Source: a virus (taxonomy: Duplodnaviria; Caudoviricetes). Taken from it: a DNA stretch of 40,679 nucleotides. The stretch covers positions 1-40,679 of the IMG/VR virus record IMGVR_UViG_3300025375_000007. One strand, given 5' to 3'. The translations under genes and the position numbers were made by a program. How positions within the stretch are numbered: the first letter of the stretch is position 1; each line of letters opens with the position of its first letter. This document shows positions 3,697 to 39,267 of this stretch, one piece after another. The notes beneath the pieces were generated by a model. That model ran no database searches. It saw only the letters and a program-made list of their open reading frames with translations, and was not told where the DNA came from.

Positions 3697-5345
3697 TGAA
3701 GACTATTGTTCTCGATATTGAAACAACATTAGACCACAATACAATCTGGTGCTGTGTAACACTACATAGAGAAACTAATGACATCACTGTATGGCGTTCT
3801 GCACAAGGCTTAAAGGAATATTTAAATAATGCTACATTTATCATTTTCCATAATGGATTTGCTTTTGATGCTCCTTTGCTTAATCGTTTATGGGGAACAC
3901 AGATTAGGAAATCCCAATGCCAAGATACTCTTTTGCTTTCTCGTCTTTCTGATTCTTCTAGAGATGGCGGACATAGTTTAGATGCTTGGGGTAAGACACT
4001 GGGCTTTGAGAAGATTGACTTCTCAGACTATGATGGTGGCCTGACCGAAGAGATGGTAACGTATTGCATACGAGATGTAGAGCTTACGTCTAAAGTATTT
4101 GATGTGTTAGTAGCAGAGATACAAAAGAATAAGATAGGACCAGAGGCTGTAAAGCTGGAATATGAAGTGCAGGTGATTCTTTCGGAGATGGAACGCAATG
4201 GATTCAAACTTGACGCACCGTATGCACAGACGTTGCTCTGTGCGATTAAGACCGAGATGGCAGAGATTGAAGAAGCCTTACAGAAAATCTTCCCACCCAT
4301 TACAACTGAGCGTGTATCTGAGAAGACTGGTAAACGGCTCAAGGATGATGTTGAGGTGTTTAATGTTGGCTCAAGGCAACAGATATCGAAGCGTCTTATG
4401 TCTAAGGGTTGGGAACCTACAAAGACGACTGAAAAGGGACAAATTATCGTTGATGAGACAATCCTTAGTGAGGTATCACTTCCAGAGGCTAAGCCAATCG
4501 CTAGGTATTTGACACTACAAAAGAGAGCATCACAGTTAGATTCATGGTTAGAAAAACTAGGAGAGGATGGTAGAGTTCATGGTAAAGTCATTGGTTTTGG
4601 TGCTGTTACTGGTAGAGCTACTCACTCTAGCCCTAATATGGCACAAGTCCCTGCAACTAGGGCAGTGCTGGGAAAAGAGTTTCGGTCTTGCTGGACGGTT
4701 GAAAGCGGAAACGTATTGGTGGGTGTCGACCTTAGCGGTATTGAGCTTCGATGCTTTGCTCATTACCTTAATGATGAGGCATACATAAATGAAACAGTCT
4801 ACGGTGATGTCCACGAAAGAAATAAGCAAGCTTTCGGGGTTGAGACGAGAGACCTTGCGAAGACTGTCCTTTATGCGACTCTCTACGGAGCATCCCCAAC
4901 CAAGGTCGGTAAAGTTATTGGTGCTACTCCGAAACAAGGAGCCGACATCATTAATCGTTTCTGTAAAGCAGTACCTGCGTATGGGAAGCTTAAGTCAAAA
5001 GTTGAAAGACTTGCTGAGAAAGGAACACTACCTGGGCTTGGTGGTTATCAGCTTAAGGTCAGGTCGGCCCATTCGTCGCTTAACACGCTACTTCAAAGTG
5101 CAGGGGCTATCATCAGTAAGCAGTGGCTTGTTCAAATCAAGAAAAACCTTACAGCCAAAAGGATACCGTACAGAATGGTCGCATGGGTCCACGACGAGGT
5201 GCAAATCGAAACTCCTATGGAACACGGAGATATGGTAGGAGAAGTGGTCGTTCACTCAGCAGCAGAGGTAGCAGATATATTACAGTTCCGTTGCCCAATC
5301 GGGGCTGAATATCATGTTGGTAAAAATTGGGCAGAAGTTCACTAA
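3696..5345 (+). CDS. polA: DNA polymerase family A (T7 gp5-like) with 3'-5' exonuclease
   Basis: Exo LDIET/HNGFAFD/YCIRD; TGRATHSSPNMAQVP; motif A DLSGIELR; motif B RDLAKTVLYATLYG; motif C VHDE; start at MKTIVLD. Confidence 0.97.
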   Translation: MKTIVLDIETTLDHNTIWCCVTLHRETNDITVWRSAQGLKEYLNNATFIIFHNGFAFDAPLLNRLWGTQIRKSQCQDTLLLSRLSDSSRDGGHSLDAWGKTLGFEKIDFSDYDGGLTEEMVTYCIRDVELTSKVFDVLVAEIQKNKIGPEAVKLEYEVQVILSEMERNGFKLDAPYAQTLLCAIKTEMAEIEEALQKIFPPITTERVSEKTGKRLKDDVEVFNVGSRQQISKRLMSKGWEPTKTTEKGQIIVDETILSEVSLPEAKPIARYLTLQKRASQLDSWLEKLGEDGRVHGKVIGFGAVTGRATHSSPNMAQVPATRAVLGKEFRSCWTVESGNVLVGVDLSGIELRCFAHYLNDEAYINETVYGDVHERNKQAFGVETRDLAKTVLYATLYGASPTKVGKVIGATPKQGADIINRFCKAVPAYGKLKSKVERLAEKGTLPGLGGYQLKVRSAHSSLNTLLQSAGAIISKQWLVQIKKNLTAKRIPYRMVAWVHDEVQIETPMEHGDMVGEVVVHSAAEVADILQFRCPIGAEYHVGKNWAEVH

Positions 5346-9292: not shown

Positions 9293-11194
9293 ATGTACAC
9301 AACACCATTTAGCACAGTAGGCTACATTACCTACAAGAGAACTTATGCACGTCGCTTAGACGAAGCAGACATCACCAGCAAGACAGAAGAGTTTCCACAG
9401 ACAGTAGAACGAGTTATTAAAGCAGCAAACACTCAATTAGGTTGTAACTTTACAGAGAAAGAGCAAGAGCGTTTACGTAAGTATTTAACAGAACTCAAAG
9501 GAACTGTAGCAGGTCGTTTCCTTTGGCAGATGGGTACAGACACTGTAGGCAAGCTAGGCTTAGCCTCGTTACAGAACTGTGCATTCACTGTAATTGATGA
9601 ACCTGTTCGTCCCTTTACTTGGGCTATGGACCTATTGATGTTAGGCTCTGGCGTAGGTTATAACATTCAAAGGAAAAACGTTGAAAAACTTCCTGAAGTC
9701 AATCCTAATTTTACTGCCCCTACTCGTTTGGATACAAATGATGCGGATTTTATTGTTCCTGATTCAAGGGAAGGCTGGGTCAGTCTCCTTGGCAAAACGC
9801 TCAAAGCAGCGTTCTTAAGCGTTAAAGAACCTACCTTTACTTATAGCACTGTATTAGTACGTGGTCGTGGTGCTGTTATTAAGGGCTTTGGAGGCACTGC
9901 ATCAGGCCCTGAAGACCTTTGTGAAGGTATCGCTAAGGTAAGTACTATCCTTGAGAAGCGTGCAGGTAAGAAGCTACGTCCTATTGATTGCTTGGACATT
10001 ATGAATATTATTGGTGCAATCGTCGTAGCAGGTAATGTACGTCGTTCAGCACAAATTGCTATTGGAGATGCAGATGACGTGGAATATCTTCTTGCTAAGC
10101 GTTGGGATATGGGAAATATTCCTTCTTGGCGTGCTATGTCTAATAACTCGGTGGTGTGTAACGACATTAAAGACCTCCATGAGTATTTCTGGGATGGCTA
10201 CGAAGGTAAAGGAGAGCCTTACGGTCTTATTAACCTGCGTCTCAGTCGCAAGATTGGTCGTCTTGGTGACACTAATTATCCTGACCCTGACGTTATGGGC
10301 TATAACCCATGTGCTGAGCAGTCTTTGGCAGCTTATGAGACTTGCTGCTTAGCTGAAGTCTATTTATCTAATGTAACCTCTAAGGAAGAATTCGTTGATA
10401 TCTGCACACTCCTTTATCGCATTAATAAGCATAGCCTTTCTCTTCCTTGCCATTTACAGGAAACAGCCGATATCGTCCATAAGAATATGCGTATGGGTAT
10501 TGGCGTTACTGGAGTTCTCCAGGCTTCTGACGAACAACGCTCTTGGTTGAATGAAGCCTACACAGAGCTACGTGCTTTTGATAAAGAGTACTCTGCTAAG
10601 CATGGCTTTCCTGAATCAATCAAGTTGACTACAGTTAAACCTTCAGGCACTCTATCGTTGTTACCAGGTGTGACCTCAGGATGCCACCCTGCTTATAGCC
10701 ACTACATGATTAGACGTATCCGTATCGCTGCAGACCATAGCTTAGTGCAGGTATGTCGTGAGCATGGATACCCTGTAGAGTTCCAGCGTAACTTTGATGG
10801 CACTGATGACCACAGCACAATGGTAGTATCTTTTCCTTTTGCTTATCCTGAAGGTACAAAGATTGCTGCTGAGATGACTGCTATTGACCAACTAGAAGTA
10901 GTTAAGTGGTTGCAAGAGAACTGGTCAGACAATAGCGTGAGCTGTACTGTCTATTATCGTAAGGAAGAGTTGCCAGAGATTAAGAAATACTTGGCTAAGA
11001 ACTACAAGAATAACCATAAATCACTGTCGTTTTTACTCCACAATGAGCATGGCTTTAAACAAGCTCCTCTTGAAGAGATTACAAAAGAAGCGTATGATGC
11101 TTTAGTTGGTTGTACAAAGCTAATTACCAAGGTGGAAGATGCTTCGTTTGAAGGTGACCTCGAATGCGCAGGTGGAGTTTGCCCCGTTAAATAA
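9293..11194 (+). CDS. nrdJ: class II (adenosylcobalamin-dependent) ribonucleotide reductase
   Basis: YKRTYAR, LQNCAF, VAGNVRRSA, NPCAEQ, TCCLAE, TTVKPSGT, C-terminal CAGGVCPVK; no beta subunit gene. Confidence 0.95.
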   Translation: MYTTPFSTVGYITYKRTYARRLDEADITSKTEEFPQTVERVIKAANTQLGCNFTEKEQERLRKYLTELKGTVAGRFLWQMGTDTVGKLGLASLQNCAFTVIDEPVRPFTWAMDLLMLGSGVGYNIQRKNVEKLPEVNPNFTAPTRLDTNDADFIVPDSREGWVSLLGKTLKAAFLSVKEPTFTYSTVLVRGRGAVIKGFGGTASGPEDLCEGIAKVSTILEKRAGKKLRPIDCLDIMNIIGAIVVAGNVRRSAQIAIGDADDVEYLLAKRWDMGNIPSWRAMSNNSVVCNDIKDLHEYFWDGYEGKGEPYGLINLRLSRKIGRLGDTNYPDPDVMGYNPCAEQSLAAYETCCLAEVYLSNVTSKEEFVDICTLLYRINKHSLSLPCHLQETADIVHKNMRMGIGVTGVLQASDEQRSWLNEAYTELRAFDKEYSAKHGFPESIKLTTVKPSGTLSLLPGVTSGCHPAYSHYMIRRIRIAADHSLVQVCREHGYPVEFQRNFDGTDDHSTMVVSFPFAYPEGTKIAAEMTAIDQLEVVKWLQENWSDNSVSCTVYYRKEELPEIKKYLAKNYKNNHKSLSFLLHNEHGFKQAPLEEITKEAYDALVGCTKLITKVEDASFEGDLECAGGVCPVK

Positions 11195-11204
11195 GGAGAA
11201 AGAT

Positions 11205-11474
11205 ATGATTGATAAACAAGAGTTTATGTTTGGAATGCAACGTTTGAATGAAGTGCTTAACTTGGCTGATGAAGTTCAACCTATTATTATGAAGCGTTGT
11301 ATGGAAGCTGCAGAGGACTTTGATTCAATGGACTCTGTACAGTTTTTAGTGTTGTGGAATGACATTAAGAAACTATTAGAGCCTGTGAATGACAAATTGT
11401 TAGAACTACAGACTGTCTCTATGTTTAGAGAACTACAACCACCTAATTATCCAGACCCTGAAAAGGTCTTATAA
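11205..11474 (+). CDS. hypothetical protein
   Basis: AAGGAG RBS supports ATG 11205 (MIDKQEF...). Confidence 0.75.
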   Translation: MIDKQEFMFGMQRLNEVLNLADEVQPIIMKRCMEAAEDFDSMDSVQFLVLWNDIKKLLEPVNDKLLELQTVSMFRELQPPNYPDPEKVL

Positions 11475-11498
11475 GTTTCCTTGAAGTTGTGATTTGAT

Positions 11499-11524
11499 GG
11501 CCTCCATTCGTGGAGGTCTTTTTT
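11499..11524 (+). terminator. rho-independent terminator ending the replication arm
   Basis: GGCCTCCA-TTCG-TGGAGGTC followed by TTTTTT. Confidence 0.9.
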
Positions 11525-11525
11525 A

Positions 11526-11619
11526 TTGTAAGAAAAAGTTTACCGTTCGGGAAGATTTGCATAAAAAGTGTGCAAAAGTATAAAAAAGTTACCGATAGGG
11601 AAATTTTGTAAGAAAAAGT
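11526..11619. repeat. symmetric repeat array: direct repeat, palindrome, hairpin, palindrome, direct repeat
   Basis: TTGTAAGAAAAAGT at 11526 and 11606; TTACCGTTCGGGAA at 11540 and TTACCGATAGGGAA at 11589; TTTGCA...TGCAAA between them. Confidence 0.75.
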
Positions 11620-11648
11620 GAGAGGTTACAAACTCGCCTGCCAATTCG

Positions 11649-11708
11649 TTGATGCCCTAGTTAGAAAGACGGAAAATCACTAGGTTCTTGATGCCCTCGT
11701 GCCGTCTT
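11649..11708. ncRNA. candidate pseudoknot RNA element
   Basis: Interleaved stems CCTAGT/ACTAGG and AAGACGG/CCGTCTT plus a 10-nt direct repeat TTGATGCCCT. Confidence 0.45.
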
Positions 11709-11711
11709 AAC

Positions 11712-12131
11712 TTATTTGATACCTACTTGTTCATTAATCCACTTCTGAAGCTCTACTACTTGAGCTGTGGTTTCTGCACATTGTCCAGCAAGAACATTGT
11801 AGGCGGAGATAACATCAGTGACGCTGGGGGCTGTGGAAAGTCCTGACACTTTACTGGTACTGGGGTTGTTCCACACGCTAGTAGACTTATAGTAGTTCCT
11901 AATAGCAGACAGCTTAGCTTCATATTCATCTTGAATTCCTTTTGTAACTAATGTTTGTTGTTTTGTGATTGATTCGACTTTTGCTTCTTGCTTCGCTGTT
12001 TCTTCTCTAACCACATGTTGAAAGTCAACGAATCGTTTATGCTCAAAGCTATAGCCAAGATACCAAGTACCAGCCAACAAAGCAACACATACTCCCATTT
12101 TGACATAAGTTAATACCGATAAAGGAAACAT
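11712..12131 (-). CDS. i-spanin (Rz-like)
   Basis: N-terminal TM helix, coiled coil, last gene of the lysis cassette, contains an embedded lipoprotein ORF. Confidence 0.85.
   Translation of the reverse strand: MFPLSVLTYVKMGVCVALLAGTWYLGYSFEHKRFVDFQHVVREETAKQEAKVESITKQQTLVTKGIQDEYEAKLSAIRNYYKSTSVWNNPSTSKVSGLSTAPSVTDVISAYNVLAGQCAETTAQVVELQKWINEQVGIK
11756..11929 (-). CDS. o-spanin (Rz1-like lipoprotein) embedded in Rz
   Basis: Alternate frame MNMKLSCLLLGTTISLLA|CGTTPVPVKCQDFPQPPASLMLSPP...; lipobox LLAC, Pro-rich, AGGA RBS; not in the ORF track. Confidence 0.85.
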   Translation of the reverse strand: MNMKLSCLLLGTTISLLACGTTPVPVKCQDFPQPPASLMLSPPTMFLLDNVQKPQLK

Positions 12132-12334
12132 TATTTATCATCCAAAGGTTTAGTTGTCGTAGCTCTAAGATAAGCTATGACAATACCAATAACAAACATA
12201 GAAACACTATACACCTTAGGGTCTAGTAAATCTTGAATGTATGAAGAGTTATCTGATATAGCTCCGAGTAAGAATAGTAAACCAGAGAACCACATAGTCC
12301 TCGATTTAAATATTCCTTGCATCTTACGTCTCAT
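12131..12334 (-). CDS. putative holin
   Basis: Two hydrophobic segments; KSRTMW...LRATTTKPL pattern; lies between lysozyme and spanin. Confidence 0.7.
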   Translation of the reverse strand: MRRKMQGIFKSRTMWFSGLLFLLGAISDNSSYIQDLLDPKVYSVSMFVIGIVIAYLRATTTKPLDDK

Positions 12335-12473: not shown

Positions 12474-12923
12474 TTATCCTTTATAGTTTGCATGTAAGAA
12501 GCATTCTTGCTCAGCAAGTCTACGCTTTAAAATACTATCGCTGTGTCCATTACTAACCATACACCACTTAGGAAACTCTACAGCAGCTTCGTTCTTTCTA
12601 CCTTCTTTAAGTAGTTTAAGAAGTGTAGAACGCTTAAAAGCACCACACCCTAAGTTATAAGTAAAAGACACGAGAGCATCAAATTCATATTGAGTAAGGT
12701 CTAGTGCTGAAGAGTTAACACAATCCTCAGCAGACTTAACGTCATCTCGAAGAAGCTGTGTAGCTTGTCCCATAGTAATAGGACTACCTTGAACTAAGCC
12801 ATCACCAACAACCATTAGATGTCCATAACCCGCCGTCCATTTACTTGCTGTATCTAAGTAAGGCATGCTACGAAAGCCTTCAAAAGTTTTAAGCTGTTCA
12901 ATACCTTTATCAGAAGTTCTCAT
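12474..12923 (-). CDS. endolysin, GH24 phage lysozyme
   Basis: E-X8-D-X5-T triad ([16 protein letters not shown]), [21 protein letters not shown]. Confidence 0.93.
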
Positions 12924-13369
12924 GTTGCTGCTGTCTGTGAAGTTAGGATACCATTAGTAAAAGTCATGCTACCATTAGAACCACCACCAGTAAGCTTAGC
13001 TGTAGTAATCGTTCCTGTGTATCCAGTAGGTTTGTGTTTAATGTACGAATACAAAGAACTATTGGTCTCTGTCCAGTCTGCCTGTACTTGAGTAATACCA
13101 GGAATACCAGTAATAGTCCCACCAGTAATTGCTACAGTATTAGAATTCTGTGTAGCCATAGTACCAAGACCAAGATTACTACGAGCACCTGCTGCAGTAG
13201 AGGCTCCTGTACCACCTTGCAGAATAGTCCAGATATTGTTACCTGTCTGGGCTTTCTGAATGTAGTTACCTAAGTTACGAAACCATTCACGCCAACGAGG
13301 ATTCTCTGAAATCTCGTCTTGTGGTATTGGTGGTAAATTATTAGGAGCAGAACTAGGATTAACAGCCAC
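12920..13369 (-). CDS. putative minor tail / tail needle-like protein
   Basis: GTG start after AGGAG; PRWREWF motif, GGTGASTAAGARSNLGLG fibre motif, MTFTNGILT C-terminus. Confidence 0.6.
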   Translation of the reverse strand: MAVNPSSAPNNLPPIPQDEISENPRWREWFRNLGNYIQKAQTGNNIWTILQGGTGASTAAGARSNLGLGTMATQNSNTVAITGGTITGIPGITQVQADWTETNSSLYSYIKHKPTGYTGTITTAKLTGGGSNGSMTFTNGILTSQTAAT

Positions 13370-14696
13370 TCTCAACTCCTTCAGCATAGCCTGCAGCTTG
13401 TAAGTCTTCTAAGTGCTTTTGTACTTTCTCACCGATGTCCGTTCTGTAAGCGATTGAATTTGGAATCTCAATCTTCTTCTTGATGGTGTCATAGACCTTG
13501 CAACGAGCATCTTCAATGGTTTCACCTAGTCCTACTACTGTGCAGACATAGTCACCCGCAGTAACAAACATAGGCTCATTCTCTTTGAGCTTACCATCAA
13601 TCATTGCAGGACCTTTGCCCCACTGTACTTCACACAGGTGAACATCAGTAACAGCATCATCCATATCCATGCCCCAGATAGGATAACCAGAGTTCTCCTT
13701 CTTGGTTACTTGGCTATATGGATAATCAGGAATAGTAACAACCACACCAGCAGCAATCTTACTAGACACACGCAGAGTATCTTCTCCGTTGATAAGGTCT
13801 AACATCCACTGAGCAGGGTCTCCCTTGTGTAGAGAAAGTTGAATATTAAAGAGAGGCCAGCCTGGACGCATTGTGAACTCTAAAGGCCATGCTTGACCTT
13901 GTTTGTCGATAATACAGTTCACATCGATGTAGCCAGTGTAGCCTAAACCATGAAGCATGTCTTCTAGTGGCTTGAGCATCTGGTCAGCCAGCTTAGAGTC
14001 TTGCGTATAGCGAACAATAGTACCTTGCTCGCCAGTAGTAACACCGAGTTCACCGTCCATGAGCTTCTTGTGTTCCCAAGACTCACAGAAGTTCTTGGAG
14101 AAACCACAAGCACCAAACCAACCGCCTACACCGAACTCAATGCCAGGACGAAACTCTTGCAGAATAAACTTGCCCTTGAGAGCATTCTTTTTCTTCCAAC
14201 GGTTCAACATGTAAATCATATCAGCAGCAGACTTTGCTACATAAGATAAAGTCTTGTCTCCGTCACCGATAGGCTTAGACACAAAGCGACGTGGGTTCTC
14301 TTTCACATAAGCAATGGCTTCATCATACTTCTCGAAGGTACGACTTGGGATTGTCTTGATGCCAGCGAGATTAAGAATTTTCTCACCATGGTCACGCTCT
14401 TGTTCCCAACGATTAGTATCAATGGATGGTCCAAAGATAGGATAACCTTTATCACGATAACGCTCTAGTGCATGGATGTAGAATAAGTTATCTGTGCAGA
14501 ACACGAGGTCTGCCCAGTTCATGTGGTCTTCCCAGTTGCTCACCCGTTTGATGAGACCACCGTCACCTACTTCAGAACGGCTACCATCCTTATTATGACG
14601 AATGAATAGACGTACTTCGTGTCCGTAGTCTTGGCTACGTAGGCCAAAAGAGAGACCGCAACCGCAGCCTGATTGGTCAATGATTAGTATTTTCAT
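13359..14696 (-). CDS. ATP-grasp ligase, PurD (GAR synthetase)-like
   Basis: GYPIFGPS, FVSKPIG, ILQEF..GIE, EHKKLMDGELGVTTGEQGT, EFTMRPGWP, YRTDIG parallel PurD motifs; GGREH absent. Confidence 0.85.
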   Translation of the reverse strand: MKILIIDQSGCGCGLSFGLRSQDYGHEVRLFIRHNKDGSRSEVGDGGLIKRVSNWEDHMNWADLVFCTDNLFYIHALERYRDKGYPIFGPSIDTNRWEQERDHGEKILNLAGIKTIPSRTFEKYDEAIAYVKENPRRFVSKPIGDGDKTLSYVAKSAADMIYMLNRWKKKNALKGKFILQEFRPGIEFGVGGWFGACGFSKNFCESWEHKKLMDGELGVTTGEQGTIVRYTQDSKLADQMLKPLEDMLHGLGYTGYIDVNCIIDKQGQAWPLEFTMRPGWPLFNIQLSLHKGDPAQWMLDLINGEDTLRVSSKIAAGVVVTIPDYPYSQVTKKENSGYPIWGMDMDDAVTDVHLCEVQWGKGPAMIDGKLKENEPMFVTAGDYVCTVVGLGETIEDARCKVYDTIKKKIEIPNSIAYRTDIGEKVQKHLEDLQAAGYAEGVESGC

Positions 14697-17600
14697 TCTT
14701 TTTTCTTACCGTAAACAGGGAGACCTAAAGTACCTAAGAGAGCACGTTTAGCACCTTCACCTGTAGGAGCTGTAATAGCTGATTGTGCTTGGAAAGGAAT
14801 AGCCATTTGACCGATAGCTTTAGCTTTACCTGCTATAGTCTTATCTTTCAAAGGACCTAGTCCAGGAACAGTACCTGTAGTAGTTACTATAGCAGCACGA
14901 GGAATAAAACCAAGCTTATTAGTTAAAGTCTTTATAGGGTCTTTAACCCAGTGAATAGCTTCCATTGAGTGCTTAGCTAATTGCATGGATGTTCCGTCTC
15001 TGAACTCGATACGAGTAGGGTCTTTATTTTCCCAGATGTCGTGTCCAGAAGTTGCATTGTTTACTATGTTCAATACTGTAGCATAAATAGCAGCGTTACG
15101 CAACTGGTATTGACGTGCAAAGTCAGCTTCTAGTTTAGGATTCCAAAGACCTTTAAGACCAGAACCCTTGTTAAACATTGTCGTAAAAGCACGTAAGGTT
15201 GATACAGTCCAGTCAGGAGCAAACATTAAGAGCTGTAAGTTTCTACGTCCTGTCGGATTGAAAGCTGTCGCTGCAAGTTCTTTAGCAATCTTATTATTAG
15301 TACGTGCAGAAATCTCAAACCAATTTAAACTACCAAAAGTGTTATTAGCGTAAGAAGAAATCTCACGAGCTAAAAGTCTAGGGTCTACATCAGGATGAGC
15401 AAGCTTAGCTTCTTCTAGTTTTTTTAAAGCTATCAGTGTTTTAAAGCCAGTAGCAGCAAAGTCCCAAGTCAACTTATCAAAAGGCTTTAAGGTAATGTCT
15501 TCTACTTTACGTAGAGCCTTCTCAGTGATATTAGTATCTTTAATAGGACTATACTTATTCATTACCCAGTCAGCACCTCTGCCAATGTCAGATAATATAC
15601 CTCTAGAAACGTCTTCAGGAGTTTCTACAACCAAGCCTTCACGCAACAGCATGTCAACGTTATCGCCTAGACCACCTTCACGTAAAGTCTTTAAAGCAGC
15701 CTTAGTTCCTGCAAAGCCTGTAGCAAGTTCTTTAGCAAACTTAATAGGGTCAGATAAAAGGAATGCTTCAGCCAAAGACTTAGCATGGAATAGACTACCA
15801 ACCACGTTAGCACGTTTAGCAGCTTGAGAGACTGCATTCAAGCCTTTCATAATCATCCCTGGGTTCGTATTGTCAAATACAAACTTCATAGGAATAGCCA
15901 TGTCAGGATGGAAAGCATAACCAGGCATCTGAGGATAAGTAACCCAGTCACGAGGCATAGGTTCTTTTTCTGTAATCTTCTGAGCTACAGGGTAGCCTTC
16001 AACATCTTTTAAATTCTTTAAAGAGCCAAGCATTTCTTTGTTGAGAATAGCTTTCTCCATAGAGGCAGAGTATTGCTTCCAGATTTCAGCAGCGTTCTTG
16101 GTCTTGACAACCATGCCACTGCCTTCAATAGCGTTCTGCAAGTCTTCAAAGGTTTCATACTTACGTTCTTTACCAAAGCGAGACTTACCAGAAGTACTTG
16201 GGCTTCTTGAACTACCAGATTCAATGAAGGCTTTAATAGCATCACCAGGAGTCTTGATACCAGACTTCTCAAAGTCTACAATGTGTGGAATGTAATCTTC
16301 AATAAAGCCTTTGATAACGCCAGCTTCTTTACCACGCTCATAGAACTCTTTATAGCCTTTGCTATAGAGTTCGTTAGCTTTAAGTTGTTCAGGTGTCAGT
16401 TTAGAGAAGTCTTTAGAATCACGAGCAAGCGTAATAGCTTCTTGTCCTAATTCATCAGGGACAAACTTTTCAGCAGCAATCTTTAAGTTATGGGAGATAC
16501 GAGAATTAGCCGTATAGTCGTTGATACGCTTACGGATAATGTTCTCTGTTTGTTTACCGAGGTCAGCTTCTTCTTGAAGAGTGTTCAAGTCTTTAACACT
16601 TGCTTGTTCTTTAGCCTTTACTTCAGGAGGCATTTCAGCAGTATGCTCTTCAACCTTAGGCATTCCTGCAGGCTGAACAGCTTTGACAGGCTCGGCTGGT
16701 TTAATGGGCGCAGGAGCCTCTACAGGGACCATCTCAGGGGCTACCTTAGGCCCGCCTCTAATAGCTCTTCCTGTGCCCTCTAAAGACTTGTGCATAGCCT
16801 CAAAAGCTACAGCAGTATATACAGATTCAGAAGCAGCTTGCATGAGGTCTTTTGGATTAACATCACGACCTTCTAGCTTAGCCCTAGCACCTTCAGCACC
16901 ACCAGCTAAAACACCGAATTGAGTTGCAGTATTAGCAGTGTTAATAGCAGCACGTCCAACCTTGGCAGCAGTGCCAGCTTCTGCAGTTAGTTTACCAATA
17001 CGGCCTAATGCGCCTGTAGCGAACATCTCAGGGTCATAGACAAGCCCTTTGATTAAGTCAGCAGTAAAGGCTCCTGGGTTATCAGAAGCTTTTTTAGCAA
17101 TAGCTTTACCAGTCTCAATAGGATTAGCAACACCCTCTTTAAGAGCATTCAAAGTCTCGGAAGCACTACGTTGAACTTGCTTTTGTTCCTCAGGTGTTAC
17201 AGGTTCTAAGCCAGGTACGATTCCGCCTAGAGCAGACCTTGCGGTATACTCTACAATAGGGGCAATCATAGACTTCTTCTTCCAGTCTTCAATCGAGATT
17301 TCGCCTAAGCCTTTACCAAGCTCAGCGAAGAAGCCTTCAGATTTTGGAGCAGTCTTAGCAGAAGGTTCGTCTTCTGTACCAGCAAAAGGACTCTTACCTG
17401 CTTTAATTCTTTCCTCAGCATGAGCAACAGCTTTCTGACGGATTGACTCAGGCATCTTATCTTTAGGACTATGAGTAAGAAGCCAGTTCTTTTCCTTCTC
17501 ATCGAGAGTAGGGACAAGAGTAGGTATCTCTGTTTCTTTACCATTAATAGGGACGCCAATAGATATCTCAGTAGAGATACCGCCTCCAGGTCGTTTTAAG

Positions 17601-17782
17601 ACACCAAGAAAGCCTCCACCTTTAGGGCTGCCGTCTTCACGCTTACCCCAAGTACTTCTATCAGGAATAGAATCATCTTGAGTAGTTGATGCAGCATCAG
17701 GGTCTACAAAGCCTTTAGGAGCAGGCTTAACTTCAACGGAAGCTTTAGGAGCTTGTGCTGCATCTGGGTCGATAAATGCCAT
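14693..17782 (-). CDS. large internal virion / DNA ejection protein
   Basis: 1029 aa, Ala/Gly-rich and helical, third of three genes after the tail genes; LMFAPDW motif. Confidence 0.75.
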   Translation of the reverse strand: MAFIDPDAAQAPKASVEVKPAPKGFVDPDAASTTQDDSIPDRSTWGKREDGSPKGGGFLGVLKRPGGGISTEISIGVPINGKETEIPTLVPTLDEKEKNWLLTHSPKDKMPESIRQKAVAHAEERIKAGKSPFAGTEDEPSAKTAPKSEGFFAELGKGLGEISIEDWKKKSMIAPIVEYTARSALGGIVPGLEPVTPEEQKQVQRSASETLNALKEGVANPIETGKAIAKKASDNPGAFTADLIKGLVYDPEMFATGALGRIGKLTAEAGTAAKVGRAAINTANTATQFGVLAGGAEGARAKLEGRDVNPKDLMQAASESVYTAVAFEAMHKSLEGTGRAIRGGPKVAPEMVPVEAPAPIKPAEPVKAVQPAGMPKVEEHTAEMPPEVKAKEQASVKDLNTLQEEADLGKQTENIIRKRINDYTANSRISHNLKIAAEKFVPDELGQEAITLARDSKDFSKLTPEQLKANELYSKGYKEFYERGKEAGVIKGFIEDYIPHIVDFEKSGIKTPGDAIKAFIESGSSRSPSTSGKSRFGKERKYETFEDLQNAIEGSGMVVKTKNAAEIWKQYSASMEKAILNKEMLGSLKNLKDVEGYPVAQKITEKEPMPRDWVTYPQMPGYAFHPDMAIPMKFVFDNTNPGMIMKGLNAVSQAAKRANVVGSLFHAKSLAEAFLLSDPIKFAKELATGFAGTKAALKTLREGGLGDNVDMLLREGLVVETPEDVSRGILSDIGRGADWVMNKYSPIKDTNITEKALRKVEDITLKPFDKLTWDFAATGFKTLIALKKLEEAKLAHPDVDPRLLAREISSYANNTFGSLNWFEISARTNNKIAKELAATAFNPTGRRNLQLLMFAPDWTVSTLRAFTTMFNKGSGLKGLWNPKLEADFARQYQLRNAAIYATVLNIVNNATSGHDIWENKDPTRIEFRDGTSMQLAKHSMEAIHWVKDPIKTLTNKLGFIPRAAIVTTTGTVPGLGPLKDKTIAGKAKAIGQMAIPFQAQSAITAPTGEGAKRALLGTLGLPVYGKKKE

Positions 17783-17794
17783 TCAAATTCCCAA

Positions 17795-18865
17795 TTAAAG
17801 TTTTTTAAGTTTCTTACCTTCAGAGATAATCTCTTCACGAGACATGTCTGGATTAGCCTTCATTGCTCTGTCAATCCAAGCAGTCTGGTCGGCAGAGTAA
17901 GCACCTTTAGTGGCTTTCTTTGCAGTAGGCTTAGCAGCTTCTTTAGGCTTGTATACAGTTTCATCTTTGCCAGTGAAAGGAACTTCAATTCCAGCAAAGG
18001 TGCTCTTAGTTCTTGTAGTGCCAAAGTCCTGAGAAATAATGTCATCACGAGCTTCGTCAACAGCGTCTTGTCTGCTTGCGTAGTCTTGTGGGTTGTTCTT
18101 GTAACGTTGACGGCCTTCGTTCTCAATGCGAGAAGCTACAGTAGCTCTTTGAGCATCAGACATAGGAACTAAGTTACCAGAAGCGTCTTTAACTTGGATA
18201 TCACCTAGTTCATCTTTTAATGTAGCTGATTGACGCTTAATAGCACCTAGAGGAGCTTCAGGAGAACCTTTGATATTATCTTTACGTGCAGCAGAGTTGC
18301 GAGTACGTTCTAAAGAAAGACCTTCCATAGCCAGGTCATGACGAATCTTTTCATTAGCTTGTAGCACTTTAATCTGAGCAGCTAAGTCTTGTGCTTCGCT
18401 TGTGCCTAAACCAACAACCATCTTACGAGCACCTTCAATATCAAAAGTACCATCAGGTTTTTTAAAGTTACTGATTTGCTGTCTAAGAACCATCTTAGTA
18501 TTAGTATCTAAACCAGCAGTATCTAAAGCACCATAAAGGTCGCTTTCAGTTTTTGCATTTTTAGCAACACGAGAACCTAAGTCAAGTTGTTTTAATTGTG
18601 TGGTTGTTTTATCTAGTTGTTGCTTTTGAGCATCAGTAACTAAAGAAGAAGCTTCCTTTTGAAAGGTATGGGCAAGAGAAGCATTGCCAGTCATACCAGC
18701 TAATTGTGCAGCTTTCTGGTTTATAGTAACCGCAGCTTGTGGGTCAGCAGCGTCTACACCTTTATAGGCTTCCTGTAGAATATTACCAGCAGTAATATCT
18801 TGCCCAATCTTAGCACCTGTTTGATAGCCTGTGCTGACGATGTCAGCTAAGTTGTACATTGGCAT
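17795..18865 (-). CDS. internal virion / ejection protein
   Basis: Position; A/Q/K-rich helical composition. Confidence 0.7.
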   Translation of the reverse strand: MPMYNLADIVSTGYQTGAKIGQDITAGNILQEAYKGVDAADPQAAVTINQKAAQLAGMTGNASLAHTFQKEASSLVTDAQKQQLDKTTTQLKQLDLGSRVAKNAKTESDLYGALDTAGLDTNTKMVLRQQISNFKKPDGTFDIEGARKMVVGLGTSEAQDLAAQIKVLQANEKIRHDLAMEGLSLERTRNSAARKDNIKGSPEAPLGAIKRQSATLKDELGDIQVKDASGNLVPMSDAQRATVASRIENEGRQRYKNNPQDYASRQDAVDEARDDIISQDFGTTRTKSTFAGIEVPFTGKDETVYKPKEAAKPTAKKATKGAYSADQTAWIDRAMKANPDMSREEIISEGKKLKKL

Positions 18866-18872
18866 ATTATCC

Positions 18873-19559
18873 TTACATCATGAATGCTGCAAAAGCAGCA
18901 TCACCAGCACCAGAAGCACCTGCAGCACCTCCGTAACCACCTAAAGCAGAAAGGTCAGTAGCACCTGTAACACCGCCCATAGTAGAGAAATTACCAGCAC
19001 TAGCTCCACCACCTCCACCACCTAAGGTAGTAGCTAAGTTGTTCAAGGCATTAGCAGAAGTTAAATTACCATACAAACCAGCACCGATAGAACCCATACC
19101 TAAAATATTAGATTGCCCTTGTGCATTAATTTGATTCTGTAGACCTGCAGCACCTAGTTGACCAGAGTACTGTGCTTGAGCAGCAGAGGCAGGAGACTGG
19201 GCAGCACCTGATAAAGTAGATAACTGATTGAACATTTGGTTGTAGTAGCTACTAAAGTTAGATTGACCAAGAGACTGCAAAGCAGCAGCTTGTCCGCCTG
19301 ACTGCAACGTTCCTGTAGCAGCCCCTGCAGCTTGTGCTGTTCGTGTACCTTGCTGTAAAGTTTGTTGATAACCAGGAGAAGACAAAGCTGACGAAGGGTT
19401 ACTCACCAGTGCATTTAACTGAGAAGCAGCTCCAGCACGATACTGTGAATAAGGGTCGTAAGTACTTAGACCGTATGGTTGAGGTACGTTTGGTTGCTGT
19501 GAGCCTCCGCCAAAGAGTCCACCGATTGCATTACCGATTCCACTAACTACGCTACCCAT
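18873..19559 (-). CDS. DNA transfer/pilot ejection protein
   Basis: G/A/S/Q-rich; PGYQ...AAATGTLQSG motif; follows the GNAT gene. Confidence 0.75.
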   Translation of the reverse strand: MGSVVSGIGNAIGGLFGGGSQQPNVPQPYGLSTYDPYSQYRAGAASQLNALVSNPSSALSSPGYQQTLQQGTRTAQAAGAATGTLQSGGQAAALQSLGQSNFSSYYNQMFNQLSTLSGAAQSPASAAQAQYSGQLGAAGLQNQINAQGQSNILGMGSIGAGLYGNLTSANALNNLATTLGGGGGGASAGNFSTMGGVTGATDLSALGGYGGAAGASGAGDAAFAAFMM

Positions 19560-19568
19560 GATTGTTCC

Positions 19569-20021
19569 TTAAATAAATTTACTATACAGTTTTTCCATGA
19601 ATGTGTAACCTAAGTATTCAAGTAGTCTAGAATTGTCTAGGTGTACTTTAGTGCTACACATTATCCTATTAACATTAAGGCTCTTGAGATGTTGTTCAGC
19701 GAACTGAAACATCTTGATGCCTGTCCTACCTTTTCTGTGTTCTTTACGAAGATAGTAAATATCCTCTAGTGCTGTTAAGCAAGACTTAACATGTAAGGGA
19801 GCACAGACTATAAACATCATGTACCCAATTAACTCTTGCTCTTTACGACATGTTATAAGATGTAACATGCCTGCTTGTTCTAGACCGTAGTAGCTTTCCC
19901 AGTTAGGTTCTAGTTCGTAACCACCTTTAAAGCCTTCTTCTAGTTCTGCATAATGTTCAGGATAGATTTTAATTAAATCATTCAGTGCATCTGAATAATT
20001 CTCTACCTGAAATGTTATCAT
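19569..20021 (-). CDS. GNAT-fold acetyltransferase-like protein
   Basis: YYLRKEHRKGRTGIKMF (motif A) and LLEYLGY; position equivalent to T7 gp13 / P22 gp14. Confidence 0.85.
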   Translation of the reverse strand: MITFQVENYSDALNDLIKIYPEHYAELEEGFKGGYELEPNWESYYGLEQAGMLHLITCRKEQELIGYMMFIVCAPLHVKSCLTALEDIYYLRKEHRKGRTGIKMFQFAEQHLKSLNVNRIMCSTKVHLDNSRLLEYLGYTFMEKLYSKFI

Positions 20022-20023
20022 AA

Positions 20024-21931
20024 CTAGTTCCTATATTGCATCTGTTGTGGTCCGTCTTGTTCTAATTCACCAATACTGAAATCTACTTCAGCAGCTAACA
20101 ATCTTAAAGGAGTATTATCTGTACAGAGGAACTCCCATGCTCTACGACGTGCTTGTCCTGTTTGATAAATCTGAGGACGTTGTGCAGCTAAGTTAACTGT
20201 GCGATAAGGAGACCAAGACTTATAGTCATCATCTGTATGACGAATATTCATAATGGCTGGTTGCTTATCACCAACAATCTCAACACGTTGATAGAACTTA
20301 CGTTTAGTAGTACCGCTATCTAATAAATCAGTTACTGAGCGATAGTAAATAGGAGCACCAGCATCATTGTATACATGGTCTGAAACAGTATATAGTTTAC
20401 CGTTATCATCATCTAATACGTAGTAGATACTGCCATTACCTGCATAGAAGCTAGGACGGAAGTATTGTTCAGCATAGACGTTAAGCACTCCTGAATCAAC
20501 ACCACCCTTGGCCCACATAGTCCACTGAGTCCAAACTTTTTCATTAGCATCGTATACTATTGTAACATTTAAATCAGCTAATGTCAAGATATAAAAGGTA
20601 TGTCCATTAATCCGTAATGGATAAGCTTTGACATCGGTTAAGGTACTATTCTGGATAATGCGGTCAATGAAAGGAGTAGAAATCTTAGAAGGAGACGTAC
20701 CAGAGATAGCATAGACTGAAGGGCCTAAGTCCTGAGATGTCCCTACAAAGAAGACTACGTTCTCAATACTGACAATGGAATTACCATTAGCACAGCCTAA
20801 TTCAATCTTGTATGACGAGGCAACCGATAAAGGAGAGCCTGGGTAGTTACCAGCGTCATAGAAGAATTCTACGGAATATTGACCAAAGCTAAGAATGTAG
20901 TTTAAATGCTTACAAAGCCCTACTTGATTATCAGGGTCTGACTCAGCAGTGATGTAATTTAAAGCATTCCACACAGTAGGGTCGTTAGGGTTAGAAGTAT
21001 AAATCTCACCATTAGGACTACCGATAACAGTATAAGTATCCAAGTAAGGCGCACCAGCAACTAACTGCCCTGTAGGGAAGCCATTGAGTTCAGCAGTCAC
21101 ATAAGCACCTGCACCACCAGCATCGGTAGCACTAAGCCATTGCAGGGTAGCAGAACCATCAGCAGCAGAGCCACTGGTAAAGGTAGGAGCAGAGGAGCCT
21201 GTTACACCTGTTACAGTAACTGCATAAACGTTAGGGGCAGCTACAATAACATCGCCTGCCATGACGGTTGTGGAGGCTGTCCACGCTGTTCCTGCTGTGT
21301 CACTAATGGTAGCCACTAGGGTATCGCTTAGCGTGTAACCTGAGCCTGCTAAAGTGATTGTAATGCCAGTAACAACACCTCCTGTAGACTGTACAGTACC
21401 TGTAGCTGTTACACCGCCTCCTGAAGGGGCTGAAAAGGTAACAATAGGGTTAGTGTAGTTACTACCGCCAGTAACCACAGTAGTGACAGTAACGCCGTCA
21501 TCTTTAACCTGTAAGAAAGCACCTGTAGCAGGATTATAAGTATAACCATGTACTTGATTCTGGACAAACAAGTAGGTATTGTTTAATGTCTGATTAAAAT
21601 AACATTGCTGTACTTTACCTCCTATTGTGCCAGTCATTGTCCCTATTGTAGTTACTGCATAGGTAGTAGGGTTAATCTTGTAGAGGACATTGTTAATGGC
21701 TGCGAACAAGAAACCATTAAAGTATGATAGCCCCTGTCCTTGCGCTACAGGCAGTGTAGGCGTAGTTACCACTTCAGTCAGGCCAGGACGTTTAACAAAC
21801 TCACGCTTGCCGTTAGTCATCTCAAAGTAGCCATTGACACACTTAGAGTCAGTATTTAAGAAACCATCTCTGGTCTCGATAGGCTGAGATAAAGGTACTC
21901 TAATAATAGGCATATTAGTTTGGTTGTCCAA
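20024..21931 (-). CDS. tail hub / DNA stabilization protein (P22 gp10-like) with insertion
   Basis: KRPGL, AESDPD, SVEFFYDAG, GCANGNSI, KISTPFID, GHTFYIL, GQARRRAWE. Confidence 0.85.
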   Translation of the reverse strand: MDNQTNMPIIRVPLSQPIETRDGFLNTDSKCVNGYFEMTNGKREFVKRPGLTEVVTTPTLPVAQGQGLSYFNGFLFAAINNVLYKINPTTYAVTTIGTMTGTIGGKVQQCYFNQTLNNTYLFVQNQVHGYTYNPATGAFLQVKDDGVTVTTVVTGGSNYTNPIVTFSAPSGGGVTATGTVQSTGGVVTGITITLAGSGYTLSDTLVATISDTAGTAWTASTTVMAGDVIVAAPNVYAVTVTGVTGSSAPTFTSGSAADGSATLQWLSATDAGGAGAYVTAELNGFPTGQLVAGAPYLDTYTVIGSPNGEIYTSNPNDPTVWNALNYITAESDPDNQVGLCKHLNYILSFGQYSVEFFYDAGNYPGSPLSVASSYKIELGCANGNSIVSIENVVFFVGTSQDLGPSVYAISGTSPSKISTPFIDRIIQNSTLTDVKAYPLRINGHTFYILTLADLNVTIVYDANEKVWTQWTMWAKGGVDSGVLNVYAEQYFRPSFYAGNGSIYYVLDDDNGKLYTVSDHVYNDAGAPIYYRSVTDLLDSGTTKRKFYQRVEIVGDKQPAIMNIRHTDDDYKSWSPYRTVNLAAQRPQIYQTGQARRRAWEFLCTDNTPLRLLAAEVDFSIGELEQDGPQQMQYRN

Positions 21932-31222: not shown

Positions 31223-31558
31223 TTAATCTAGTAAATAGTTGATAGCTTCTGCAAGAAATTTAGGATTATCTCTAAAATTACCTAAACCTTGATTACAGCT
31301 CATACACAACAATCCACGAACTTTCTTAGTTGTATGGCAATGGTCTACTGCCAGATTTCTAGGTTGTTTCGTTCTGTTATCTATGACTGTTTCAGGGCTT
31401 TTGCATATCATACAAACACCGTTTTGTTTTTCTAACATTTCGTTGTACTGTTCTAAAGTAATGCCGAAGCTTTTCTTTAAATCAGTACTTCGTACTCTGT
31501 TAGGATATTTTAAGCGGTATTGCTTTTGATAAGCAGCAGCTTTAGCTTTTTTATCCAT
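31223..31558 (-). CDS. endonuclease VII-type HNH (homing-like) endonuclease
   Basis: FGITLEQY..M...Q.G.CMIC...LAVDHCH....VRGLLCMSCN.GLG. Confidence 0.92.
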   Translation of the reverse strand: MDKKAKAAAYQKQYRLKYPNRVRSTDLKKSFGITLEQYNEMLEKQNGVCMICKSPETVIDNRTKQPRNLAVDHCHTTKKVRGLLCMSCNQGLGNFRDNPKFLAEAINYLLD

Positions 31559-33614: not shown

Positions 33615-34454
33615 TTAATCCCATTCATATTCTGCAACATAAGCTTCTTTGGTCATAAGACCTTGCTTAACGAATTTATCACAAGCTGCTTTAGCTTCTG
33701 CAGGTAAGTTGTTGTAAGATTTCTTTCCAGTACCCACTGATGGTCTAGCTGTCCCATTAGAGGAGCCTTCCATCGGATTCTGTACTCGTTTCTTACCAAA
33801 CTTCTCTGGTAGCATTGCTGTAAGTTCCTCATCTAGTTTATCCAAGAAGGCTTGACCATTAAGGCTAGGGTTCTCACGACGGAGTTCAACACCTAATCCA
33901 TTAGCAATACCAGTCATTCTTGTATCTTTACCAAACCAGTCATTCTTCTCAATCCATGTATTTAAGATTGGGTCAGTAGTGACTTGTGGAACTTCTTTAG
34001 CTTTTTCTTCAGCTTCTTTTAAGTCTTGTTTTGCTTCTAGACGCTCTTCTTTAATAGCATCCATGGCATCGTCAATCGCTATTGCTCTGTCACCATCGCC
34101 TTGCGTAATTGCTTCACGCTTAGCTTGCTTCAGGTTTTCTAGCTGACTTTCCAAGTCTTTGGTCTTTCGCTCAAATTGTTGCTTTTGAAACTCACGAAAC
34201 TCTTTAGCAGTTTCACGTGCTTCTTCAGCCATCTTTTTAGCTTCACCTAATTCTTTAAGCAGTTTCTCATTGTTCTTACGAAGGATTGGCATAATCTCTT
34301 TACCACGACGTACAAACGTCTCAGCATCAACCCAATCGCTCTCAGAGCCACGGAACTCATCTGCTGCTACCCAGCCCTGCGCCCTTGCTTCGGACTCGTA
34401 CTGAGGGGCTTTTGGAGCGTCCTGTGGTGCTTCTTGTTGTGTTACTTCACTCAT
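33615..34454 (-). CDS. capsid scaffolding protein
   Basis: EARAQGW, long charged coiled coil, W..KNDWF, C-terminal helix. Confidence 0.75.
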   Translation of the reverse strand: MSEVTQQEAPQDAPKAPQYESEARAQGWVAADEFRGSESDWVDAETFVRRGKEIMPILRKNNEKLLKELGEAKKMAEEARETAKEFREFQKQQFERKTKDLESQLENLKQAKREAITQGDGDRAIAIDDAMDAIKEERLEAKQDLKEAEEKAKEVPQVTTDPILNTWIEKNDWFGKDTRMTGIANGLGVELRRENPSLNGQAFLDKLDEELTAMLPEKFGKKRVQNPMEGSSNGTARPSVGTGKKSYNNLPAEAKAACDKFVKQGLMTKEAYVAEYEWD

Positions 34455-34795
34455 GGTTTTCTTCCCTGTGCTAGATGTGGGTCAATCAACTTCATGTCAT
34501 CATCTAATTTACATACTAAGTTGTCGTAGTTAATCATTCGATAATCCACGCCATCTTTACCTTTGTACATCAAGCCAGCATACTTAGCGTAGCCAACTCT
34601 CATACCTACTGAAACAACACCGTCTGGAACTTCTTCACCTAAGGCAATAATCTCACCTGTAGTATTTGAAAGCTGTTCTCGCTCGCTGGTCTCTGCAGTA
34701 GAAATAATGATTCCACTTGCTGTCTTTTCTTCCACTTCGAGAGGCTTAATTAAAATCCTATCAAATACTGGAGTAATGCCAGACACATTAATCAT
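34451..34795 (-). CDS. groES: co-chaperonin GroES
   Basis: PVFDRILIKP..VEEKTASGIII mobile loop, GEIIALG, VGMRV.YAKYAG. Confidence 0.9.
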   Translation of the reverse strand: MINVSGITPVFDRILIKPLEVEEKTASGIIISTAETSEREQLSNTTGEIIALGEEVPDGVVSVGMRVGYAKYAGLMYKGKDGVDYRMINYDNLVCKLDDDMKLIDPHLAQGRKP

Positions 34796-38587: not shown

Positions 38588-38834
38588 TCGTTCTATTACC
38601 TTTTTTTCTATTTACTGCCTTGCTTACAACTCGAAGGTTGCTCTTAGCGGTACTACCGCCTTTACTTAAAGGTTTCTTGTGGTCAACTTCTTTACCATCA
38701 CCTTTGGAGACCTTACCAGCAGAAGCCATCTCAGCTCTTGCACCATTCCTGGAGGCTCTGTTCTTCTTTTGAGTCCCAGTACCATGGTAGTCTTTATATT
38801 CTTGTTTGTAGTTACGTGGTTCCTTGCGGGGCAA
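38571..38834 (-). CDS. small basic HNH protein
   Basis: RNYKQEY...[16 protein letters not shown]....NLRVV....NR. Confidence 0.8.
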
Positions 38835-39267
38835 AATAGTTTCCTTTGGACAAGTTTTCTTTAGCAGGGATAACCCTTAAATTGTTATGAACATGTAATC
38901 CACAAACATTTTTACCCTGTAAAGGGACTATATGGTCCACATGCCACTTTTCACCGCTTTCCTTACTCAGCATAGCTGCTAAGGAATAATAACATTCTAT
39001 ACGTTCTAAATTAGCCCAAGAAGCTGTTGCAGTTGTCCTTGAAGCACGTTGCCTAGCATTCTTGGCATTTACTTTAGGCTTGTTCTGTAACCTGTATTCC
39101 TTATACTGTTCAGACCGTTTTTCTTTATTTTGTTCTTCCCAATTTTTTTTAACAATTGCGTGTAGTTCTTTGTTGTCTTGTTGCCACTTTTTTTGATACT
39201 GTTTAACGTGTTCTTTATTCCGTTCACGCCACAGTTTCATTGAAAGTTTTTTTGTTTCAGACACCAT
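38812..39267 (-). CDS. HNH endonuclease
   Basis: [36 protein letters not shown] with helical basic N-terminal repeats. Confidence 0.9.

Follow-up and report, generated by a model that had tools for sequence, protein, structure and literature searches.

Glycinamide ribonucleotide (GAR) synthetase, PurD (EC 6.3.4.13; TIGR00877; Protein Data Bank entries 2yw2, 2xcl, 2qk4 and 1gso), is the described enzyme that most resembles the protein considered here. In passages of PMC2978367 and PMC8449271, roles are assigned to residues of its active site, and R11, E12, D293 and R383 of the Salmonella enzyme correspond to R13, E14, D295 and R385 of the human one. In a passage of Brown et al. (2011; PMC3261824), the 'extra PurD-like' proteins rrnAC0307 of Haloarcula marismortui and Hlac_1553 of Halorubrum lacusprofundi were judged not to be GAR synthetases; neither has GARS_N, a P-loop or the Asp of R[LF]GDPE, and each coexists with a true PurD. 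In phages, purD genes are listed under purine metabolism in passages of two virome papers (PMC11097641 and PMC12043954). Moreover, fusion to MuF or to the portal protein has been described, in a passage of PMC5512222, as an architecture of injected effectors. Here, we analysed a PurD-like gene at 13359..14696, on the minus strand of a 40,679-nucleotide virus record (Duplodnaviria; Caudoviricetes; IMGVR_UViG_3300025375_000007, positions 1 to 40,679), which is hereafter called the window. The gene encodes an ATP-grasp protein of 445 amino acids (aa), hereafter the ligase, which a preliminary description made from the letters of the sequence had read as a repurposed amide ligase wired into the DNA-ejection genes. 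The sequence places the ligase, which is strongly conserved, in a large and so far undescribed family that is sister to PurD; it is tied to the ejection block of phages and is not essential there. A search of the open-licence literature, without supplements, found no description of the phage ligase family or of its link to the ejection genes.

The window record is linear, podovirus-like and 88% complete. Its plus strand is the replication arm, which carries the primase-helicase, polymerase A, exonucleases, DUF3310, which we take to be the 'gp1.7-like' gene, and a class II ribonucleotide reductase (RNR). Its minus strand is the packaging, head, tail and lysis arm, and includes the ligase gene. 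The placement of RNR and DUF3310 on the arm opposite to the ligase, as first described, was seen again, and a Pfam scan of 44 open reading frames (ORFs) of this 88% complete record gave no other pur gene, also as first described. The ligase gene and its main motifs are as follows.

13359..14696, minus strand: the whole ligase (445 aa), an ATP-grasp protein that has a PurD fold and belongs to a family other than PurD, assigned from the ORF, motifs, model and tree.
14655..14678, minus strand: aa 7-14, DQSGCGCG, at the position of the PurD GxGGRE loop; only D7 is commonly kept, and GCGCG is clade-specific.
14019..14075, minus strand: aa 208-226, EHKKLMDGELGVTTGEQGT, with the signature EHKK..GxxTGE[MQ]GT; two of the three intein sites of the relatives are here.
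13854..13880, minus strand: aa 273-281, EFTMRPGWP (E273-x-T275-x-R277-x-G-W280-P); the third intein site of the relatives is here.
13431..13448, minus strand: aa 417-422, YRTDIG, a C-domain motif common to the ligase and PurD.

The likeness of the ligase to PurD is far above chance. Its sequence is similar to that of Bacillus subtilis PurD with an E-value of 5e-15. An AlphaFold2 model, made from a 77-row alignment, has a mean predicted local distance difference test score (pLDDT) of 96 and shows the N-B-A-C four-domain arrangement of the PurD-type fold over its full length. In Foldseek, the best matches are all GAR synthetases (E 2e-31, TMq 0.75). In VIA, the model aligned to GAR synthetase with a Z of 35.9 and a root mean square deviation of 3.2 Å over 396 residues, at 22% identity; the top 13 rows are GAR synthetases only (Z 32-36), and the next families follow at Z 24. 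The modelled structure thus has an ATP-grasp fold by both programs. Sequence profiles separate the ligase from PurD. It scores 88.1 bits against TIGR00877, which has a cut-off of 288 bits, and ten other members of its family score 52-112 bits. Pfam gives GARS_C and GARS_A below threshold only and no match to GARS_N, PHROG gives no match for the ligase, and the sole matches in a viral structure library are distant ATP-grasp proteins. The comparison with PurD by hidden Markov model (HMM) and by structure, which the preliminary description had proposed, was thus carried out, and it returns a PurD fold with a score below the PurD cut-off and with the substrate residues lost.

The active site was compared in an alignment of 52 viral and 31 cellular representatives, which share less than 70% identity and were taken from 245 full-length members, and of 25 true PurD. 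Because many loci had been picked by motif, residues were also counted on 77 members chosen by phmmer. Residues E98, K141, E187, E208, K210, G225, E273, R277 and R418 are invariant in 77/77. By the roles given in the passages cited above, which apply to this whole paragraph, K141, E187, K210, E273 and R277 comprise the ATP-binding Lys and Glu, the metal-binding Glu and the oxyanion-binding Arg of an ATP-grasp enzyme. RxDIG is retained in the family as well. The phosphoribosylamine site of PurD (Arg11, Glu12, Asp293, Arg383) is replaced by C13, G14, W280 and Y383. Of the glycine site (Asp214, Arg290, Asp293, Glu295, Tyr/Phe271), only the Arg is retained, as R277, and the other positions hold E208, W280, L282 and D258. 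The equivalent of D214 is thus a Glu (E208), while those of K216 and R290 are kept. In true PurD, R11, E12 and D293 are found in 24/25, E73 in 23/25, and N288, E295, R383 and the G-L-x-x-G-K-G B-loop in 25/25; all of these are lost in the 52 viral and 31 cellular representatives, except for G144 and K148 of the loop. In the ligase, GLAAGK of the B-loop has become PIGDGDKTLSY. In segment 273-281, the metal Glu and the carboxylate Arg are kept, and the Asn, Asp and Glu of PurD are substituted. GxGxRE was found in none of 270 homologues. The preliminary description had seen DQSGCGCG in place of this loop; as a functional replacement it is not supported: GCGCG occurs in 13 of the 120 closest homologues and in none of 150 distant ones. 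A CxC metal or redox loop was also considered and rejected.

Other residues have become conserved in their place. These are E208 (77/77), R101 (76/77), T275 (73/77), E223 (72/77), D258 (70/77) and N260 (70/77), and position 280 is aromatic (35 Trp, 33 Tyr and 4 Phe among the 77). The signature at aa 208-226 includes E208, K210 and G225, all 77/77, together with E223. The second metal ligand, the Asn of E-x-N, is a Thr in 73/77; the conserved N260 and E223 may compensate, and the N260 position is that of a metal ligand in PurT (passage of PMC2978367). The Asn-to-Thr change and the rebuilt B-loop would suit a dead protein, one repurposed for structure, or a different chemistry such as that of a carboxylate kinase or an ATPase. 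We consider this highly improbable, since the ATP, metal and carboxylate residues are invariant over distances of 30% identity, N260 occupies the PurT position in most members, and purifying selection on the gene is strong, as described below. The pattern points to an intact ATP-dependent activation of a carboxylate and to two substrates that both differ from those of PurD; the pocket would suit a cationic amine without a phosphate.

The family is very large. It has 2543 clusters at 90% identity (E ≤ 0.001) and 242 representatives at E ≤ 1e-30, and we estimate about 1000 viral and about 2500 cellular stretches, the latter by motif scan; of the cellular stretches sampled, 120/120 match the family HMM. 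Cellular carriers include haloarchaea, DPANN, the candidate phyla radiation (CPR), Bdellovibrio, Bacteroidota, Gemmatimonadota and alphaproteobacteria. Cultured cells of Halorubrum, Haloarcula, Rhodopseudomonas and Bdellovibrio carry members, so the reaction could be studied experimentally with no phage in culture. From the Halorubrum and Haloarcula members, which have the same residue pattern, rrnAC0307 and Hlac_1553 likely belong to this family. In a FastTree phylogeny, which came with a long-branch warning, the 25 PurD are all on one side of a branch with a support of 100, and 49 of the 52 viral rows form one subclade (support 99). The nesting among canonical PurD that the preliminary description had named as evidence against its reading was therefore not seen. 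The family is also a heavy target of inteins (P0124, P0126, P0187, P0248, P0283-P0398), and some proteins have two. An insertion splits 137 of the 139 long homologues; an intein-start pattern falls mostly at three sites, all inside invariant motifs, where it places 120 starts, and LAGLIDADG and Hint matches were obtained. No paper on inteins of this family was found. In one 77-kb virus (L168), two diverged tandem paralogues (9337-10731 and 11047-12288), one of them without the family motifs, adjoin a gene resembling nucleoside deoxyribosyltransferases.

Source databases label many members PurD, and a divergent but working GAR synthetase, that is, a purine auxiliary gene, has to be considered. 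PurD is the nearest relative in both fold and sequence, the K216 and R290 equivalents are retained with only a Glu for D214, and in a CPR contig (G024) a member is located about 11 kb from a PurF-like gene. The contig was rejected as a pur operon, as no pur gene was seen by eye between the two. No pur gene was found among 107 genes that immediately neighbour the family in cells, and PurF scored over its cut-off in 0/50 carrier viruses. A true PurD is also present in 24 of 36 hand-picked cell genomes that carry the family, and in a complete Bdellovibrio chromosome with a member, no gene passed the cut-off for PurD or for PurF. Several small metagenome-assembled genomes show the same, but these are incomplete. 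Together with the lost phosphoribosylamine and glycine residues, the low profile score, the missing GARS_N and the separate branch, these data make it very unlikely that the ligase is a purine auxiliary gene, in agreement with the preliminary description.

The genes around the ligase on the minus strand are listed here in order of transcription.

20024..21931, minus strand: tail hub or stabilisation protein, P22 gp10-like (PF11134, 7e-10; PHROG 578, 2e-49), the upstream anchor of the block.
19569..20021, minus strand: GNAT acetyltransferase (Pfam 5e-5; PHROG 2e-13), in an exchangeable slot between the hub and the first ejection gene.
18873..19559, minus strand: first ejection protein, 228 aa, Gly/Gln-rich (PHROG 598 'DNA ejection', E 1.1e-5).
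17795..18865, minus strand: likely second ejection protein, 356 aa, assigned by position only.
14693..17782, minus strand: likely third ejection protein, 1029 aa, assigned by position; its C-terminal half is LPD38-like (a lead).
12920..13369, minus strand: small tail-like gene overlapping the ligase stop, with a likely GTG start at 13369 and AAGGAG.

The late-strand ORF of 445 aa, its quoted motifs and its two overlaps are all present as first described. The ATG start of the ligase and the TGA stop of the 1029-aa gene share the sequence ATGA. The small tail-like gene overlaps the ligase by 29 nt if counted from its first ATG (13387) and by 11 nt from GTG 13369, which, behind AAGGAG, is the likelier start; it has only weak tail-fibre PHROG matches (2.5e-6). 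Promoter and terminator scans were at chance level (22 against 23.5, and 8 against 8.0). The block had been described as a GNAT gene and three ejection genes. The GNAT gene stands, and so does the first ejection gene with its DNA-ejection PHROG; the second and third have no Pfam, PHROG or NCBIfam match and are named from their position. For the third one, the ESM Atlas gives a likeness of its C-terminal half to LPD38 clusters of viruses (0.97), which we regard as a lead only.

The association of the ligase with these genes is conserved across distant phages. Viral loci were clustered at less than 70% identity, and 44 clusters had at least 5 kb upstream. A match to the tail-hub or first-ejection-gene HMM was found upstream on the same strand in 34 of these 44 ligase-picked clusters. 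Among the other ten, eight look by eye like divergent ejection blocks, three of them with a virion PHROG upstream, and two are clear exceptions. The gap to the upstream large ORF is 3 nt or less in 27 of 52 clusters, and exactly -4 in 16. Loci were also picked by the tail hub, which gave 77 new loci, not dereplicated, of which 31 had enough downstream DNA and 29 extended past the third ejection gene; the ligase directly follows that gene in 23 of the 29, and the six without it are one lineage. The conserved link to ejection genes that was first proposed is thus borne out. It is also seen in MW202796.1, where the gene (42140-43462) is preceded by the same block of hub, GNAT and three genes.

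The slot before the ejection genes is variable. It holds the GNAT family of the window in 10/44 clusters, a count that could miss other GNAT subfamilies, and in 14/44 its gene is a cupin, a cupin-SET or a hydroxylase-like one, 'hydroxylase-like' being a label given by reading the sequence, with no profile match. These are all plausible protein-modifying enzymes. A sister record (G002) has the GNAT in the slot and no ligase. Since the slot gene varies in this way, the GNAT and the ligase, which the preliminary description had seen as a bracket around the ejection genes, do not form a system. Joint loss of the two genes in the sister lineage was likewise rejected, because G002 has the GNAT. In a second sister phage, G001, the slot holds a small ORF that is GNAT-like by eye, with no profile match. 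A protein with HExxE adjoins the ligase in 3/52 clusters; none is found in the window.

Rates were compared for nine genes in 11 relatives picked by hand. Across these, the ligase has an identity of 68-98%, with 82% or more in 10 of them. Its dN/dS is 0.04-0.11 in 10/11, the remaining value being saturated, and it is the most conserved gene, or tied for this rank, in 10/11. The third ejection protein could not be aligned in six of the 11 relatives, and in one more it is 28% identical. This gene is a hypervariable cassette, encoding unalignable proteins of 470-1500 aa among otherwise close phages; replacements are found at loci L362, L368, L371, L391, L393 and L405.

These rates bear on one option of the preliminary description, a modification or cross-linking of virion proteins, here taken as a morphogenesis enzyme that would acylate or cross-link ejection, capsid or tail proteins during assembly. 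Its other options, a small-molecule product and a packaged, injected enzyme, are taken up below. Such a role would fit the position of the gene and its apparent translational coupling, the other likely protein-modifying genes of the block (GNAT, cupin, cupin-SET), the second and third ejection proteins, which are rich in lysine (about 10%), and a single portal-MuF fusion described below. However, the ejection proteins are hypervariable and swapped while the ligase stays 82-98% identical, so the adjacent protein is unlikely to be a specific substrate. Furthermore, the ejection proteins of a sister phage without the ligase are equally lysine-rich, and the family is found in cells and in non-virion regions of T4-like phages. 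We therefore disfavour a role in modifying or cross-linking the ejection proteins specifically. A virion role may still apply if the modification is independent of sequence or if its target is conserved, for example the capsid protein; overall we regard this role as rather unlikely. When the ligase was co-folded with part of the 1029-aa protein (residues 480-1029), the score was 0.00, which is uninformative either way.

Based on these data, we propose that the ligase forms an amide on an amine that is conserved and of host type, and that it is made late together with the third ejection protein and is possibly packaged with it for early action. We give this reading a probability of about 40%, and its parts differ in strength. 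The modelled fold, the residue pattern, the separate branch, the purifying selection and the position of the gene were seen in the analysis; joined to ATP-grasp ligase chemistry, they make a part that we hold to be highly probable. In this chemistry, K141, E187, K210 and E273 would hold ATP and Mg, the donor carboxylate would be placed on R277 and converted to an acyl-phosphate, and attack by an amine would yield the amide. The acceptor pocket, which lacks the phosphate-binding arginines and holds acids and aromatics instead (E208, E223, D258, W280, Y383), would receive a cationic amine without a phosphate, for example a polyamine, the amine of an amino acid or a protein lysine, and the donor would probably be other than glycine. 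The substrate would be conserved and present in cells, since the enzyme barely changes as its neighbours are swapped and since it occurs in cells and in T4-like phages with no ejection genes beside it; a substrate of host type is, in our judgement, probable. The weakest step is the last one, in which the coupling of late translation to the third ejection gene would serve co-packaging and delivery, by analogy with T4 Alt or MuF-fused effectors. The conserved position of the gene, and one protein that joins portal, ligase and MuF in the architecture of injected effectors, count in favour of the proposal.

Several observations weigh against this proposal. The geometry of the pocket is derived from alignments and not from coordinates. 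No frame of the complete sister phage G001, which has terminal repeats, encodes the ligase, the window serving as positive control in this search; in G001 the capsid protein is 83% identical to that of the window, the third ejection protein is related, and the small tail-like gene there directly adjoins the third ejection gene. The ligase is thus not required for this type of virion. In six loci of T4-like phages, the ligase is among non-virion genes, a placement that fits a host substrate and not packaging. The fixed position could reflect inheritance of the block alone. A fusion of portal, ligase and MuF in a single 1236-aa polypeptide, encoded on a 65-kb contig (P0263), is one among 122 long proteins. 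INPHARED has a single record that contains the family, MW202796.1, which is from an uncultured source and leaves the gene unannotated. Finally, the cellular neighbours are scattered, and none points to one substrate. In one of the T4-like loci (L140), pmoC/amoC (Pfam 3e-122; 3729-4505) and the ligase (9398-10705) are separated by 5 kb in a non-virion region. A repeated fusion with virion proteins was looked for among 12 hits and among the 122 long ones and was rejected, as P0263 stands alone and two other candidates, P0156 and P0183, may be assembly artefacts.

Many of these points would equally suit a non-PurD ligase that is never packaged, a late enzyme acting on a small molecule or a host target, for instance by acylating a polyamine or an amino acid, for which the place beside the ejection genes is a slot for late expression. 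T4-like phages and cells carry the ligase without ejection genes, it is dispensable in the complete sister phage, and the slot takes other insertions, followed by unrelated tail or lysis genes. Cellular neighbours also include small-molecule tailoring enzymes and EamA exporters; those that recur are GNAT, SET, a haem-oxygenase-like oxidase with a methyltransferase, and transporters. This neighbour scan left out 17 of 80 long loci, in which the ligase was uncalled, although a six-frame check finds the ligase in all. Set against an unpackaged enzyme is its constant placement relative to the third ejection gene, always on one side of it in phages that differ widely, despite the exchange of that gene. 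Moreover, decarboxylases that would make an amine are not co-encoded: PF01862 was found in 0/50 carrier genomes and PF02675 in 1/50, far from the ligase in a 162-kb phage, other decarboxylase families being unsearched, and no decarboxylase was found among the 150 of 177 candidate neighbours that were scanned. We consider the unpackaged enzyme unlikely, though it deserves to be kept in mind. A cellular subclade with the haem-oxygenase-like oxidase, the methyltransferase and often SET (L235, L254, L258, L260, L263, L280, L306, L310) is a candidate small-molecule pathway and is promising for the identification of a substrate.

In its boldest form, our proposal would describe phage effectors of a new class: the ATP-grasp amide ligase would enter the head with the ejection proteins, be injected and, ahead of phage gene expression, acylate an amine that is conserved in hosts, be it a metabolite, a defence signal or a lysine of a protein. 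Its chemistry would be common to thousands of bacteria and archaea, including minimal CPR and DPANN cells. We regard this form as doubtful. If it is true, every 'purD auxiliary gene' call on such phages is wrong, and amide ligation joins the chemistries that phages deliver at infection. In any case, a very large enzyme family has been filed as PurD though it lacks the substrate residues of PurD.

Two further features of the late arm were noticed. A GroES co-chaperonin gene (34451-34795), located between the portal gene and a scaffold-like gene, is also kept in G001 and MW202796, and two free-standing genes resembling endonuclease VII or HNH are found at 31223-31558 and 38812-39267.

The block can be compared with several known systems. 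T7 gp13 and P22 gp14 are acetyltransferase-like morphogenesis genes, for which our literature search gave no confirming paper. The window GNAT (19569-20021) is like them in being a small GNAT gene just before the ejection genes and would then be an ordinary podovirus feature; the comparison touches the GNAT alone and not the ligase. The amidoligase cluster of phiEco32 and LUZ24 (RimK-like ATP-grasp, glutamine amidotransferase, Amidoligase_2 and COOH-NH2 ligase) is also phage-encoded and amide-forming, but it has a different, shorter ATP-grasp family, is made of several genes and lies outside this window. A cluster of the phiEco32 type was seen elsewhere in the genome of one carrier (L463; G089:C1:21000-29000). 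Among enzymes delivered by the virion (T4 Alt, MuF- or portal-fused effectors, polyvalent proteins, as far as the source passages describe them), the ligase is similar in having its gene in a virion block, in one fusion and in an LPD38-like neighbour. Unlike MuF-type effectors, it is nearly always a separate gene, and its packaging is putative. In word searches, PMC5512222 gave neither PurD nor glycinamide, and ATP-grasp for RNA ligases only, though its contextual tables might mention them; PMC9503650 and PMC7824862 gave no PurD. The passage of PMC3261824 treats two archaeal proteins, with no function, wider family or phage members, and the phage ligases form a subclade of their own. PurD itself is alike in fold, in the ATP, metal and carboxylate residues and in the C-terminal RxDIG. 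However, its motifs GxGGRE, GPEAPL, GLAAGKG, the D and E of RFGDPE, and GGRV are all substituted in the ligase, which also differs in its lack of pur context, its frequent inteins and an extra C-terminal helix ending in LxxxG. A simple motif test, TGE[MQ]G with EFTxRxG[WY]P against TGGMG with EFNxRFGDPE, assigns any sequence to the ligase family or to PurD.

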